In this document: positions 7,294 to 47,236 of the stretch, one piece after another
Layout: each line of letters begins with the position of its first letter
How positions within the stretch are numbered: position 1 is the stretch's first letter
DNA from: a virus
Length of the DNA: 64,000 nucleotides
IMG/VR virus record: IMGVR_UViG_3300044691_000566
Coordinates: 64,001 to 128,000 of that record
Direction: 5' to 3' (one strand)
The notes under the pieces: model-generated
Database searches by the model: none
What the model saw: only the letters and a program-made list of their open reading frames with translations
What the model was told of the DNA's origin: nothing
Made by a program: the position numbers and the translations under genes

Positions 7294-7398
7294 CACGAAG
7301 GCCCCCACCCGATATGGGTGGGGGCCTTCGTGTTGTTCCCCTGCCGTGCCCTGCCATGCCCAGCCTTGCCGCGCCGTGCCGAGGACTTGACTGTATCA
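7294..7398 (-). ncRNA. GGY-NN repeat small RNA unit A (orphan)
   Basis: minus strand TGATACAGTCAAGTCCTC + 8 GGC-NN (AC GC AA TG AT AG AC AG) + hairpin. Confidence 0.8.
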
Positions 7399-8521: not shown

Positions 8522-8550
8522 ACGCACGACGTCCTGCGCCGAGCGCACAC

Positions 8551-8649
8551 GACGAAGCCCCCTCCGGTGATCCGGAGGGGGCTTCTCCCTGCCATGCCCT
8601 GCGCTGCCATGCCGCGCCTCGCCATGCCGTGCAAGACCTGACTTTATCA
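8551..8649 (-). ncRNA. GGY-NN repeat small RNA unit B (orphan)
   Basis: TGATAAAGTCAGGTCT + 8 pentamers (AT GA GC AT AG AG AT AG; one CGC variant) + hairpin. Confidence 0.8.
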
Positions 8650-25871: not shown

Positions 25872-26269
25872 CCACCGCCAAGGACGAGCCGGAGGACGGC
25901 GTCCCGCAGGGGATGCTCACGCCGCCCGAGGAGGGCACCGTCCCCTACGGCGGCAAGGGCCTCACCCTGAATGCAACCGGGGACGTCCACCCCTACCAGC
26001 TCATCGAAGAGATCTACCAGCGCCTGGGCGAGCGCGGCGACTACGAAGTGGTCGTCACCGAGTCCCACGACGGCAAACAGCGCTCCGTGCACGTCCTGGG
26101 CGATGCCGACCGGGCCGTCGTGCAGGGCGTCATCGACTCCCACGACCCCGACCCCGACTACGGCCTCAGCGCCGAGGAGCGCCGCATCCAGGACCTGAAG
26201 CACCAGTTGAAGAGCGGCGCCGACCTGTCCCCCCAGGACTTGAACACCCTGATGCGCGCCATGCTCTGA
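25862..26269 (+). CDS. hypothetical protein
   Basis: overlaps previous stop; followed by hairpin. Confidence 0.6.
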
Positions 26270-26270
26270 C

Positions 26271-26379
26271 GACGAAGGGGGCGGCCGGAGCCGCCCCCTT
26301 CTCCCTGCCATGCCCAGCCATGCCGCGCCATGCCTCACCTTGCCGTGCCAGGCCATGCCCCGAGGACTTGACTATATCA
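26271..26379 (-). ncRNA. GGY-NN repeat small RNA unit C (orphan)
   Basis: TGATATAGTCAAGTCCTCGG + 11 pentamers (AT CT AC AA GA AT GC AT TG AT AG) + hairpin. Confidence 0.82.
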
Positions 26380-36018: not shown

Positions 36019-36031
36019 GAGCTGACTGACG

Positions 36032-37021
36032 ATGACGACTCAGACTCTCGCCGCCACCTCGTCCCTGCGCGGCCGTATCGCGCGCAAGTCCGACGACTAC
36101 GCCAACGCCATCATGGAGCGCCGCAAGAGCAACGCGCCGCTCACCCATGAGGCCAAGGTCAAGAAGATGGCGTTGATCCTCTCCGACGAGACCAGCGGCA
36201 TCCGCCGCCTGGGCGTCGGGATGGTCGGCCCCATCCAGCTCAAGCTGCGCTACCAGGGCATCACCAGGAACGTGCTGGTGGAGGACCCGGTTACCCCGGG
36301 TACCCCCGTCGAGTACGACGTCTGGGATGATCTTGGTCAGGCGTACATCATGTCCGGCACCGAGGGCGAAGTCCGTGTGACTCCGTTCGAGGGCAAGCGC
36401 GTTCCGGTGCGGTTCTTCCGTATCGCCTCGCGCCCGGCCATCCGCAAGGAGGACCTGTTCTACCTGCGTATCAACGCAGTTGAGCAGGCCCAGGACGAGA
36501 CCAAGCAGGCCATCCTCAAGCAGGAGGACACCCGCCTGCTCGTCCTGCTCCAGGCGGCGCTGACCGACTACGCCACCCGGCCGGACCACACGGTCACCCC
36601 GAACCACAACATCACCGAGGCGTCGGGCTACCTGACGCCGGGCTCGCTGTACTCGGCCGTCGCCATGACGGACATGCACGAGTTGCAGAGTGCCAGGATC
36701 TTGATCAACCCGTTCGACTTCCGGGACCTCTACCGCTGGGACATCAACCAGACCGGCTGGGCGTTCAAGGACCGGGTCGTCGCGGGCGAGACGATCACCT
36801 CGTTCGGCGAGTTCCAGATCCAGCGGTCGATCATCGTGCCGCAGGGCAAGGTCTTCCTCACCCCGGAGCCCAACTTCTTGGGCGTTTTCCCCGTTTTGTA
36901 CTCCTTGGACGTCGAGGAGAACCACATGGTGGAGGCGTTCTGGAAGGGCTGGGTGTTCGACGAGATGGTGAACATGACCATTTTGAACGCAAGGGGAATT
37001 GCCACGATTACCAAGGCTTAG
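36032..37021 (+). CDS. major capsid protein
   Basis: 329 aa; PIQLKLRYQGITR...EGKRVPVRFFRIAS...AILKQED resembles Bxz1-type MCP; synteny. Confidence 0.8.
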   Translation: MTTQTLAATSSLRGRIARKSDDYANAIMERRKSNAPLTHEAKVKKMALILSDETSGIRRLGVGMVGPIQLKLRYQGITRNVLVEDPVTPGTPVEYDVWDDLGQAYIMSGTEGEVRVTPFEGKRVPVRFFRIASRPAIRKEDLFYLRINAVEQAQDETKQAILKQEDTRLLVLLQAALTDYATRPDHTVTPNHNITEASGYLTPGSLYSAVAMTDMHELQSARILINPFDFRDLYRWDINQTGWAFKDRVVAGETITSFGEFQIQRSIIVPQGKVFLTPEPNFLGVFPVLYSLDVEENHMVEAFWKGWVFDEMVNMTILNARGIATITKA

Positions 37022-37573: not shown

Positions 37574-37609
37574 CTTGTAGTACAGGACTTGACATCGTCA
37601 ACTCCAAAC

Positions 37610-38182
37610 GAAGGCCCCCGGATTTAAAAATCCGGGGGCCGTTCCCCTGCCCAGCCATGCCACGCCCAGCCAAACCCCACCGTGCCGGGCCATACCATGA
37701 GGCCCTGACTCTATCATCTCCAACGACTGAGGGGCTCCCCGTAGGAAGCCCCTCCCATGCCTTGCCACGCCGAACCGGGCCCTGCCTTGCCCTGCCAGGG
37801 CATGCCAGGGCCTTGACCCTGTCATCTCCAATGGCACCTGTCAAACGACTGAGGGCGCCACCCCGAAGGATGACGCCCTCCCATGCCCCGCCTGGCCCTG
37901 CCAGACCTCGCCACGCCGAGCCTCGCCCAGCCCCGCAAGACCTGACTCTGTCATCCCTGCCCGCATCTGTCAAAGCTGAGGGCGATCACCCGTAGATGAT
38001 CGCCCTCCCATGCCCTGCCCGGCCAAGCCGAGCCGCGCCATGCCTAGCCCTGCAAGACCTGACTCTATCAGCCCCAATGACGAAGGGGCCCGAAGGACCC
38101 CTTCTCCCTGCCCTGCCCGGCCTAGCCCCACCGCGCCAGACCTTGCCCAGCCGTGCCTAGCCACGCGGCCCTGACTCTATCA
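37610..38182 (-). ncRNA. array of five GGY-NN repeat small RNA units (D1-D5)
   Basis: units 37610-37716, 37729-37824, 37851-37953, 37978-38070, 38082-38182; each -10 box + 8-11 pentamers + hairpin. Confidence 0.85.
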
Positions 38183-42688: not shown

Positions 42689-42815
42689 AACCGGACATTA
42701 CGGCCATGATAGGGTCAGGTCCTGCAAGGCACGGCAGGGCTAGGCGAGGTCTGGCAGGGTACGGCTGGGCACGGCAGGGGGAGGGCGATCACCTACGGGT
42801 GGTCGCCCTCCGTTG

Positions 42816-42931
42816 TTGACAGATCCAGTAGGACATGACAGAGTCAAGTCGTCCTCATTCACCTGGGGCGGGCGTCGGTCGATCCGTGGTGCTCCCTTTC
42901 GCAACAAGGGCACGGATTGACCGACGTCTTT
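42816..42931 (+). ncRNA. putative non-repeat structured sRNA driven by the same promoter type
   Basis: TTGACA-N17-CAGAGT then 18-bp stem 42871-42888/42911-42928. Confidence 0.45.
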
Positions 42932-43090
42932 GTACTCCCGTCGGTAACCCTGATAGAGTCAAGTCCTCGGCACGGCTAGGTAGGGCAGGGTTTGGTAGGG
43001 CAGGGAGAAGGGGTCCTCTACGGAGGACCCCTTCGTTTTGCCCCCGCAGGCCCGGTAGAGTCCGGCCTCCACCGTCAGAGAGGACCCTCA

Positions 43091-43300
43091 ATGCCCGACA
43101 GCGAGATCATCAGGGACTGGTACACCTCCAGCGCCTGCGGGGCGAACAACTCCTGCCTGGAGGCCCGCACTTACGCCGACGGGTCGGTCGAGATCCGCAA
43201 CTCCCAGGACCCGAAGGGCACCCTCCTCCGGTTCACCGAGGACGAATGGTCCGCCTTCCTCGTGGGCGCCCGCGCCGGGGAGTTTTCCACCGGGGCATGA
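43091..43300 (+). CDS. DUF397 family protein
   Basis: WYTSSAC..NSCLEA...VEIRNSQDP..LRFT..EWSAFL.G...GEF. Confidence 0.85.
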   Translation: MPDSEIIRDWYTSSACGANNSCLEARTYADGSVEIRNSQDPKGTLLRFTEDEWSAFLVGARAGEFSTGA

Positions 43301-43402
43301 CCTGATAGAGTCAAGTCCTCGGCTAGGCATGGCGGGGCTCGGCTTGGCACGGCAGGGAGAAGGGGTCCACTACGGTGGACCCCTTCGTCGTTGGGAGGAC
43401 GG

Positions 43403-43582
43403 ATGCGCATCGGTCAGGAGCCGCCCCGGCGGGAGAAGCTGCGGGGCTACGTGATCACCGGCTGCATCAAGTGCGGCGGCCGGTCCAAGTGGATCCGGCG
43501 TGGACCGCACGACTGCTGCTTGCGCAAGGACATGAGCCGGGCCCGGGAGAAGCAGGAATGGCGCCGGACCCTCAGGGATTGA
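43403..43582 (+). CDS. small basic Cys-containing protein
   Basis: GGAGG RBS; CIKC; stop overlaps unit E4 promoter. Confidence 0.5.
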   Translation: MRIGQEPPRREKLRGYVITGCIKCGGRSKWIRRGPHDCCLRKDMSRAREKQEWRRTLRD

Positions 43583-43928
43583 TAGAGTCAAGTCCCTGGC
43601 AAGGCTGGCCAAGGCCCGGTAGGGCACGGCTTGGCCCGGCAGGGCAGGGAGAAGAGCCCCACTACGGTGGGGCTCTTCGTCGTTGACGGACCCCGCAGTT
43701 CATGACAGAGTCAAGTCCTGCATGGCCGGGCGGGACGTGGCGCGGTGTGGCATGGCTAGGTAGGGCCGGGCAGGGCATGGGCTGTGGAGATGGGGCCTCT
43801 TTCGGGAGGCCCCATCGTCTTGATAGAGTCAAGTCCCTGGCTGGGCTTGGTATGGCTGGGCTTGGCGTGGTGAGGCATGGCAGGGGGAGAGGGCCCGGAT
43901 TTTTAAATCCGGGCCCTCCGCCATATGG

Positions 43929-43996: not shown

Positions 43997-44575
43997 ATGC
44001 AGGTCCGTTTGACTCTTACCGGAACCACATCGCTGCTCATGCACAACGCGCGGCTGTCCGACCCGTTGGACCCCTACACCAAGATGCTCAAGGCCATCTC
44101 CTCCAAGCGCACCAAGACGGAGGACGACCACGACGACATGGCGCGCGTCGAATTCCTCGGCGGCCTGTACTTCGACCCGGAGGCCGGGCCGTACGTTCCC
44201 GGCGTCAACGTCCACCGCTGCCTGGTGGAGGGCGCCAAGCTCAACAAGCTGGGCCGCCACGTGGAGCGCGGCATCATCGCCCTGGACGAGATCTGCCCGC
44301 TGGGCTACGCGGGGCCGCGCACGGAGGAGGCGCTGTGGAAGGACAAAAACTTCGTCTCCCGGCTGTCCGTCGGCGTCACCACCTCGCGCGTCATGCGCAC
44401 GCGCCCCGAATTCCCGGTGTGGGGCCTGGAGGCCGACATGCTGGTGGACACCGGCCAGCTCGACCTGGAGCAGGTCCGCACCATCGCCGAGAAGTCCGGA
44501 CAGATGATCGGTCTCGGCGACTACCGTCCCCGGTTCGGGCGATTCACCGTCGAGGTCGTCGAACTCCAGGGCTGA
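43997..44575 (+). CDS. RAMP/Cas7-like RRM protein, putative effector of the GGY-NN RNAs
   Basis: N-terminal strand LTLTGTTSLLMHN, PYVPGVNVHRCL (cf. RAMP IPGSxxKG), C-terminal G-rich loop GLGDYRPRFGRF. Confidence 0.7.
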   Translation: MQVRLTLTGTTSLLMHNARLSDPLDPYTKMLKAISSKRTKTEDDHDDMARVEFLGGLYFDPEAGPYVPGVNVHRCLVEGAKLNKLGRHVERGIIALDEICPLGYAGPRTEEALWKDKNFVSRLSVGVTTSRVMRTRPEFPVWGLEADMLVDTGQLDLEQVRTIAEKSGQMIGLGDYRPRFGRFTVEVVELQG

Positions 44576-44614: not shown

Positions 44615-45178
44615 ATGGCCGCCAAGCCGTTCGAGCCCAAGGGCGATGTCGCCCGCTGGGTCCCCGTCTACGAGAATCTGCGCGACCTGGAGCCGGGGGT
44701 GCTGGTCACGTACGAGCAGCTCTCGGAGTGGGCCGGAGTCGATGTCCGGCGCGACCGCAGCCCCCTCGTGCAGGCCGAGGACAAGCTCCTGAAGGAGCAC
44801 GGGCGCGGCGTCGCCAACGAGCGGGGCGTGGGGTACCGGATCATGCTGGCCTCCGAACACGGTGAGGCCGCCCGGCGCCAGACCCGGAAGGCCGACCGCC
44901 GGATCAGGAAGGCCATAACCCTTCTGACCGTGGCCGACCGCAATCACCTGACCCCGCAGCAGCGGCAGAAGTACGAGAGTCAGGCCGGGGCTCTCCAGGC
45001 CGTCCGGGACATGACCAACCGCCTGGCGCGGCGGACGGCCGCGCTGGAGGAGGGTCTGAAAGCGGTCCGTCGGGAGACCAAGGAGACCACGGCCGGTCTG
45101 TCCGACCGCTTGGAGCGGCTGGAGGCCCGGTTCGCGAACGTTCCGGGCGATGCCCCGGCGGACAGCACCACGACCTGA
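44615..45178 (+). CDS. winged-HTH-like + coiled-coil protein co-transcribed with RAMP-like gene
   Basis: VTYEQLSEWAG...NERGVGYRI; long amphipathic helix. Confidence 0.6.
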   Translation: MAAKPFEPKGDVARWVPVYENLRDLEPGVLVTYEQLSEWAGVDVRRDRSPLVQAEDKLLKEHGRGVANERGVGYRIMLASEHGEAARRQTRKADRRIRKAITLLTVADRNHLTPQQRQKYESQAGALQAVRDMTNRLARRTAALEEGLKAVRRETKETTAGLSDRLERLEARFANVPGDAPADSTTT

Positions 45179-47084: not shown

Positions 47085-47170
47085 TGATAGAGTCAGGGCC
47101 TCGGTATGGCTGGGCCGGGCTCGGCTGGTCGGGGCATGGCAGGGGAGGCCCCCACTTCGGTGGGGGCCTC
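47085..47170 (+). ncRNA. GGY-NN repeat small RNA unit F (orphan)
   Basis: TGATAGAGTCAGGGCCTC + 8 pentamers (AT TG CG TC TG GG AT AG; one GTC variant) + hairpin. Confidence 0.8.
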
Positions 47171-47236
47171 AGCCGTGTCCGGGGTCCGGCGAGCCCGGTG
47201 AAGGGGTGAAGAGATCCCCTTGACCCGGAGGCCGAC

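Follow-up and report, generated by a model that had tools for sequence, protein, structure and literature searches.

The open reading frame (ORF) at 43997-44575 very probably encodes Vipr, the RAMP protein of a type II-like VIPR system. The system includes guides, five of them with predicted targets, and is carried by a complete soil myovirus for which Streptomyces is the probable host. VIPR (Viral Interference Programmable Repeat) was described in 2026 preprints (bioRxiv 10.64898/2026.04.26.720920,.720927 and 2026.10.15.759431), and since April 2026 the Vipr family has had a name, a solved structure and a functional dissection. According to these preprints, a VIPR system consists of Vipr, which is a minimal RAMP protein, a vap accessory gene, and vrRNAs of 9-16 GGY/NN units followed by a structured tail. 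Vipr polymerises with one protomer per unit, so that GGY is sequestered and NN is presented; the NN bases pair with double-stranded DNA, in which every third base is skipped, and the outcome is transcriptional silencing. The published targets are satellites, prophages and other VIPR loci, and self-targeting is absent.

The virus, IMGVR_UViG_3300044691_000566, has a complete genome of 159,746 bp with direct terminal repeats. Its DNA came from a soil metagenome, has a G+C content of ~67-68% and carries nearly all genes on the + strand; a look-up of sequencing runs listed no RNA run that contains it. We analysed bases 64001-128000 of this record (64,000 nucleotides, referred to as the window), and positions are those of the window unless marked as genome positions. 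The two protein genes of the system are as follows.

43997-44575, + strand: vipr, intact ORF for a 192-aa minimal RAMP protein (Vipr)
44615-45178, + strand: vap1-like accessory gene, 187 aa, phrog_5926; next gene after vipr

Vipr is a minimal RAMP protein

A GGGAGGG Shine-Dalgarno sequence is found in the window sequence 6 nt 5' of the vipr start. The ATG at 43925, which would give a longer ORF, was rejected as the start because the homologues begin with MQVR or MKVR and because this position lies inside a vrRNA tail. The initial annotation had proposed three RAMP motifs in this ORF, and all three are present, at residues 5-17 (LTLTGTTSLLMHN), 65-76 (PYVPGVNVHRCL) and 172-183 (GLGDYRPRFGRF). 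In the AF2 model of Vipr (pLDDT 95), they are located on strand 1 (residues 2-9), at the start of helix 69-81, and in the loop joining helix 157-171 to strand 183-189; in the model, they are the RRM strand, the helix-1 and the G-loop of a RAMP. Residues H16, P68, N71, G172, D175, R177, P178, G181 and R182 are invariant in an alignment of 48 homologues, and since the motifs carry such residues, they are not a chance occurrence.

A search of a 5.8-billion-protein set revealed 515 Vipr homologues, none with an informative name. Vipr had no match at E<=1 in Pfam, NCBIfam or PADLOC, including their RAMP, Cas7 and cas models, and in PHROGs it belongs to phrog_4652, whose function is unassigned there. 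The check that had been suggested, an AlphaFold-type model followed by a Foldseek search, revealed that the solved matches outside Vipr are all Csm3/Cas7 (Foldseek and VIA), with only 6-16% identity to these chains. The profile of homologues matched one solved structure, PDB 36pp "SUSP1 Vipr protein", with an E value of 5.8e-55, and the single Vipr sequence alone reached 4.6e-40 over residues 4-188 in a phmmer comparison with the same entry. By tblastn, Vipr is 39% identical to the Felixounavirus homologues of SUSP1 Vipr.

Pairwise alignment to PDB 36pp, combined with the residue list of the SUSP1 cryo-EM paper, gave the correspondences (SUSP1 to this phage) H17 to H16, K33 to K32, R39 to R38, K82 to K81, K88 to R87, R138 to R136, D177 to D175, W178 to Y176 and R179 to R177. 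In SUSP1 Vipr, alanine mutations of K33, K82, R138 and D177 abolish silencing and that of R39 reduces it (cryo-EM paper, PDB 36pp); all five of these positions are retained in the phage protein. Across the 48 homologues, the residues that correspond to the GGY-reading ones of SUSP1 (H16, R136, D175, Y176 and R177) and to its DNA-holding ones (K32, R38 and K81) are invariant or nearly so, with W in most homologues at the position of Y176.

The claim that the 64 kb contain no other cas gene was borne out, as PADLOC and Pfam found no cas model in 58 window ORFs. The proposed stand-alone Cas7-type RAMP without Cascade partners is genuine, and by homology and fold it is a member of the VIPR family. 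The suggestion that it silences by binding rather than by cutting would also be essentially right, by homology with that family.

The vap1-like gene

The gene directly after vipr belongs to phrog_5926, the family of Felixounavirus wV8 gp94, which is in turn the gene after the wV8 Vipr homologue. BLASTP with its product gave E values of 8e-15 to LittleE gp33 and 5e-6 to wV8 gp94, the third value of the wV8/Trine/LittleE comparison being 6e-9. The vipr-vap pair occurs in the same order in Felixounavirus wV8 (gp95/gp94, beside the DNA polymerase) and in Gordonia phage Trine (gp41/gp40), and in the mycobacteriophage LittleE the pair (gp34/gp33) forms a reverse-strand insertion among the tail genes. 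A vap homologue lies directly 3' of vipr in 64 related loci. In the AF2 model of the vap1-like protein (pLDDT 93.9), residues 15-76 form a winged helix, after which come two long helices; a Foldseek search with this model revealed weak winged-helix rows only (best E 9e-3). The vap1 product is a DNA-binding accessory protein of type II VIPR systems (2026 preprints). By sequence and model, the gene at 44615-45178 fits vap1, and this homology suggests that the VIPR system is type II-like.

Vipr homologues were observed in Felixounavirus, Pseudomonas, Gordonia and Mycobacterium phages. Others come from genomes or MAGs that bear the labels Streptomyces, Bradyrhizobium, cyanobacteria, Planctomycetes and two archaeal lineages. 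Across its carriers, the vipr-vap pair occupies unrelated genome positions, like a mobile cassette.

Twenty predicted guide genes

A period-5 GGY scan found 20 GGYNN arrays in the genome and 15 in the window, compared with ~0.35 expected in the Markov shuffles used as the null. Six arrays lie in tandem 5' of vipr and on its strand (42707-43928, within 1.3 kb), and one lies downstream (47085-47187). Behind the capsid gene there is an antisense array of five predicted vrRNA genes (37602-38182), and single arrays occur at 26.3, 8.6 and 7.3 kb in the window; five more are outside it. The predicted vrRNA genes of the window are listed here.

42707-42822 (ends approximate), + strand: vrRNA gene, tract ~42728-42777; no target in 61 Streptomyces genomes
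42951-43048, + strand: vrRNA gene, tract 42969-43003, 7 units
43303-43400, + strand: vrRNA gene, tract 43321-43355, 7 units
43580-43692, + strand: vrRNA gene, tract 43598-43647; predicted target, the pPIWI_RE_Z helicase of a pPIWI-RE defence island
43703-43823, + strand: vrRNA gene, tract 43724-43778; predicted target, motif III (RLYMTATPR) of a telomere-proximal, presumably ttrA-like SF2 helicase
43821-43928, + strand: vrRNA gene directly 5' of vipr, tract 43839-43883; predicted target, an HTH_3 + Peptidase_M78 regulator
47085-47187, + strand: vrRNA gene, tract 47103-47142, 8 units
38063-38182, - strand: vrRNA gene, tract 38162-38108; predicted target, Ro60/Rsr (TROVE+VWA), motif YTWNLAGYR
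37965-38070, - strand: vrRNA gene, tract ~38049-38010
37838-37953, - strand: vrRNA gene, tract ~37932-37883; target matches not above control
37712-37824, - strand: vrRNA gene, tract 37806-37757; target matches not above control
37602-37716, - strand: vrRNA gene, tract 37696-37647; predicted target, N6_N4 DNA methylase, motif HITQKPVE
26260-26379, - strand: solo vrRNA gene, tract 26359-26305, 11 units; no target found
8544-8649, - strand: solo vrRNA gene, tract ~8628-8589
7296-7398, - strand: solo vrRNA gene, tract 7380-7341, 8 units

The guide genes share one layout, in which a TGATAGAGTCA-like motif precedes 7-11 guide units; these are followed by GGCAG/GGCAT units, one or two in number and nearly constant, and then by a GC hairpin as the tail. 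TGATAGAGTCA was found with at most 1 mismatch 11-21 nt 5' of 19 of the 20 arrays, and with 2 mismatches at the twentieth. In sequence it resembles an extended -10 promoter. It also stands before eight sequences of the genome that have neither GGY repeats nor guides, and is therefore probably a promoter-like motif in general use by the phage. MFE folds predicted a plain, perfect GC hairpin of 11-17 bp 3' of all 20 arrays, the stems of which differ between copies by compensatory changes (covariation), and no Rfam model matched the window, including the vrRNA tails. Arrays were found beside vipr in 75 of 80 related viral Vipr loci. In the closest relatives the promoter motif and the tail are kept while the NN bases differ, which is the signature of a programmable guide.

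Different arrangements were also seen. In a 154-kb relative (L012:10581-11851; Vipr 68% identical), eight vrRNAs are tightly packed and have the tail GGTTC + hairpin + GGGGGCGTTCA; TGATAGAGTCA does not precede each of them, and the arrangement resembles one processed array rather than separate genes. A second promoter-like family in the phage, which shares its core motif with the first and has no guide linkage, consists of five copies of TGACAGAGTCA at genome positions 29110, 42504, 45338, 47562 and 50379 (minus strand, before the window), followed by AGACTACTC..AGGATTGTTGGAG. Inside the vrRNA array, a DUF397 gene (window 42992-43297; Pfam E 2.5e-14) is preceded by a TGACAGAGTCA motif at 42836 without GGY repeats. 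DUF397 is typical of Streptomyces-like actinomycetes.

Predicted targets in Streptomyces

Targets were searched in Streptomyces genome samples using the published one-base-skip rule, with the reversed pattern as the control. Thirteen of the 20 guides were searched; five gave targets, and eight gave nothing above the control. The guides of 7-8 units (window 42969, 43321, 47103, 38059, 8638 and 7380; genome 142703) were left out because their 12-14 informative bases give too many chance matches, and an 11-unit guide at genome position 56033 was also left out. The five guides have predicted targets in Streptomyces coding motifs, where their matches greatly outnumber those of the reversed-pattern control. 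None of the targets is matched by the final one or two units (GGCAG/GGCAT), and the effective guides are therefore only 7-9 units long (14-18 informative bases).

Guide 43724 matched one Streptomyces genome at 21/22 and 20/22 positions of the one-skip pattern. With no more than 2 mismatches, 51 of 201 Streptomyces genomes contained matching sites, 66 in total (reversed control, 0). The first nine units matched 18/18, the mismatches being confined to the two constant units. The protein encoded at the sites has ~840 aa, ResIII/DEAD/Helicase_C domains and three to four HA domains, and is a putative ttrA-like helicase, of the kind encoded at Streptomyces chromosome ends; in complete chromosomes, the distance of the sites from both ends is 1.4-5 kb. 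Guide 43839 matched in 3 genomes with 14/14 on the first seven units (control, 0). Its site is in a ~380-aa protein that has HTH_3 and Peptidase_M78 domains (ImmA/IrrE-type) according to language-model features only, and in 2 genomes it lies in the same element as the helicase site of guide 43724, 3.5 kb from it, with identical spacing and relative orientation.

Guide 38162 was matched in 42 of 101 genomes, at 44 sites altogether (control, 1), with 18/18 in most matching genomes. The site encodes the motif YTWNLAGYR in a single-copy TROVE(+VWA) Ro60/Rsr gene of the chromosome core, and variation between genomes within the matched stretches falls on the skipped bases. Guide 43598 had 15 sites (control, 2), of which 7 converge on MGNVLGFQ within the pPIWI_RE_Z helicase of a pPIWI-RE three-gene island, and guide 37696 had 13 sites (control, 1), most of which converge on HITQKPVE in an N6_N4 DNA methylase with NlpC/P60 and EccE-like genes as neighbours; the methylase, pPIWI-RE and ImmA-type matches comprise 3-13 sites. 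From the site coordinates, all five targets are in frame and the skip falls on the wobble base.

Nothing above the control was found for guides 42713, 26359, 37806, 37942 and 149190 (the last a genome position) in about 50-60 Streptomyces genomes, and guides 143848 and 144414 (genome positions) had no match in five genomes. The exact one-skip patterns of guides 43724 and 149190 had 0 matches in IMG/VR. No self-match above the shuffled-guide null was found when the 20 guides were compared with the phage's own genome.

In a related phage (L011:9841-9885, IMGVR_UViG_3300048999_000131; Vipr 72% identical), a guide shares six consecutive NN units with guide 43724. Because this guide goes on matching the Streptomyces helicase site, the two phages appear to aim at the same helicase motif, with the register shifted by three units.

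The probable host

Judging from the guide matches alone, the host genus is probably Streptomyces. The major capsid protein (36026-37018) shares 61% identity with its counterparts in Myrna and Phabba, which are Cluster C mycobacteriophages, and ~58-60% with the capsid proteins of Rhodococcus and Gordonia myoviruses. However, in 51 genomes of a Mycobacterium genus sample the guide 38162 pattern had 1 match, compared with 6 in the control. Since this guide is not above the control there, Mycobacterium was counted against as the host despite the capsid identity. According to Pfam, the other products of the 58 window ORFs include a Thg1-like tRNA-His guanylyltransferase, a domain resembling rifampin ADP-ribosyltransferase (Arr-ms), a dCTP deaminase/dUTPase, a GH25 lysin, a cement protein, a tail sheath and an HNH/NUMOD4 homing endonuclease.

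Guide 149190 and the phage's own DinG-like helicase

The vrRNA at genome positions 149190-149234, outside the window, decodes antisense to [IM][FL]LYTS[RS][KN]A (loci L009 and L090). The phage's own DinG-like helicase, 900 bp from this guide, reads LLLYTSRKA at 148280-148306 with a DNA match of 13/18, and all differences between the guide and this gene are in Leu/Ser/Arg codon families. These differences in the phage's own copy suggest the DinG-like homologue of a rival phage as the target, and the phage's gene may avoid self-targeting by synonymous recoding. The related-locus search found no relatives of the phage's DinG-like protein.

Host genes or rival elements as targets

Our tentative reading, which is quite possible though short of probable, is that the phage uses VIPR against its host as well as against rival mobile elements, with autonomous guides across the genome silencing resident Streptomyces genes and the phage's own DinG-like homologue escaping by its codon families. 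A real VIPR system aimed only at rival phages, satellites and plasmids, for which the chromosomal matches in Ro60/Rsr and the pPIWI-RE island would be incidental or decoys, is rather unlikely but is the strongest competitor. It agrees with the satellite, prophage and other-VIPR-locus targets of the preprints, and guide 149190, which mirrors the phage's own LLLYTSRKA but differs from it at the Leu/Ser/Arg codon families, also favours it. The contexts of the helicase/ImmA-type pair and of the methylase look mobile as well (chromosome or contig ends, NlpC/P60 and EccE-like neighbours, lower GC3). The Ro60/Rsr site, however, does not: it is single-copy, lies ~1.4-2.9 Mb inward of the closer end in complete chromosomes, has ordinary genes (PhoX, GntR and a PLP enzyme) as its neighbours, and is matched 18/18 in most of the 42 genomes concerned. 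Nor did any of the 20 guides exceed the shuffled null in 80 related VIPR loci (1.2 Mb).

The GGYNN units might instead be promoter-terminator or REP-like punctuation to which the function of the protein is unrelated. Every array ends in a strong hairpin that could be a terminator, and TGATAGAGTCA also precedes the eight non-GGY sequences. This reading is nevertheless very improbable, since the GGY periodicity is strict while NN is variable, the same architecture lies beside vipr in 75/80 relatives, and the NN strings decode to in-frame conserved Streptomyces motifs far above the control.

Comparison with known systems

The locus combines homology to a characterised Vipr, its key residues, adjacent vrRNA genes with at least 4 tandem YNNGG/GGYNN units and a structured tail, a vap gene without cas genes or CRISPR, and one-skip guides that spare the phage's own genome. 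Cas partners, a CRISPR array and a match to a curated RAMP/Cas7 model, which would mark a class 1 Cas7/Csm3 protein, were absent. Compared with the class 1 backbone RAMPs (Csm3, Cmr4, Cas7 of types III and VII, and Cas7-11), Vipr is 6-16% identical and lacks the second RRM; it belongs to a phage system with a 5-nt period in which three bases are sequestered, and its family binds double-stranded DNA and would here repress rather than cleave. Although the best solved structures outside Vipr are Csm3/Cas7, an orphan Cas7/Csm3 derived from a class 1 CRISPR-Cas system that had decayed or been captured, either non-functional or using host crRNAs, is extremely improbable and already contradicted by this low identity, the lack of any Pfam RAMP/cas match at E<=1 or cas gene in the window, flanking repeats that are 5-nt GGYNN units and not CRISPR repeats, the similarity to Felixounavirus homologues (39% by tblastn) and to solved SUSP1 Vipr (E 4.6e-40), and functional residues invariant across 48 homologues.

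The type II VIPR systems of SUSP1 and Pseudomonas fulva likewise have a homologous Vipr with the GGY- and DNA-contacting residues kept, a homologous vap1 directly 3', and tandem GGYNN vrRNAs with a structured 3' tail on both sides of the genes. They likewise show no self-targeting and have coding-motif targets on either strand with the skip on the wobble base. In contrast to SUSP1, the system described here is in an actinobacterial myovirus of ~160 kb and has 20 guide genes, compared with four vrRNAs at the SUSP1 locus; 13/20 are more than 3 kb from vipr, 11/20 are on the opposite strand, and every guide gene comes with a promoter-like motif. A further difference lies in the constant GGCAG/GGCAT units, one or two per guide, which never match targets. 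The tail is pseudoknotted in the SUSP1 clade, whereas here it is a simple GC hairpin in MFE folds, a method that does not cover pseudoknots. Among the predicted targets are chromosomal host genes and a defence island; targets of this sort are unmentioned in the main texts of the preprints.

Single vrRNA genes far from vipr (window 7341-7380, 8589-8638 and 26305-26359) resemble the solo or orphan vrRNAs of satellites and VIPR-null phages (10.64898/2026.10.15.759431). However, the solo guides here share their genome with vipr-vap1, and therefore extend the phage's own repertoire rather than hijack the protein of another element.

Proposed mechanism and meaning

By analogy with the characterised systems, the locus would be expressed and assembled into an RNP that silences its targets to the benefit of the phage. 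By homology with SUSP1 Vipr, one protomer would bind each GGYNN unit of a vrRNA, with H16, R136, D175, Y176 and R177 holding the GGY bases while the filament presents the NN pairs. These pairs would read double-stranded DNA with two bases on and one skipped, and the complex would block transcription and leave the DNA uncut, presumably assisted by the vap1-like winged-helix protein. The phage would supply 20 separate guide genes, at least five of them apparently aimed at conserved codon motifs of resident Streptomyces genes, where the wobble position would be the one skipped.

Studies of VIPR have so far concerned phages of E. coli and Pseudomonas; this locus extends it to a large actinobacterial myovirus. 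What is new here is how unusually large and scattered the guide set is, its autonomous promoter-guide-hairpin design, the probable Streptomyces host, and the predicted host chromosomal and defence targets. Guide sequences alone can indicate the probable host genus of an uncultured soil phage. If VIPR is indeed directed at the host, it would act on a pPIWI-RE (Argonaute-type) island, on RNA surveillance by Ro60/Rsr, on a DNA methylase, and on a helicase near the telomere together with its ImmA-type regulator, and guides on conserved codon motifs would allow one guide to cover many strains. The predicted targets, if real, would mean that phage RNA-guided silencing reaches host defence and RNA-surveillance genes, a counter-defence role so far undescribed for VIPR.
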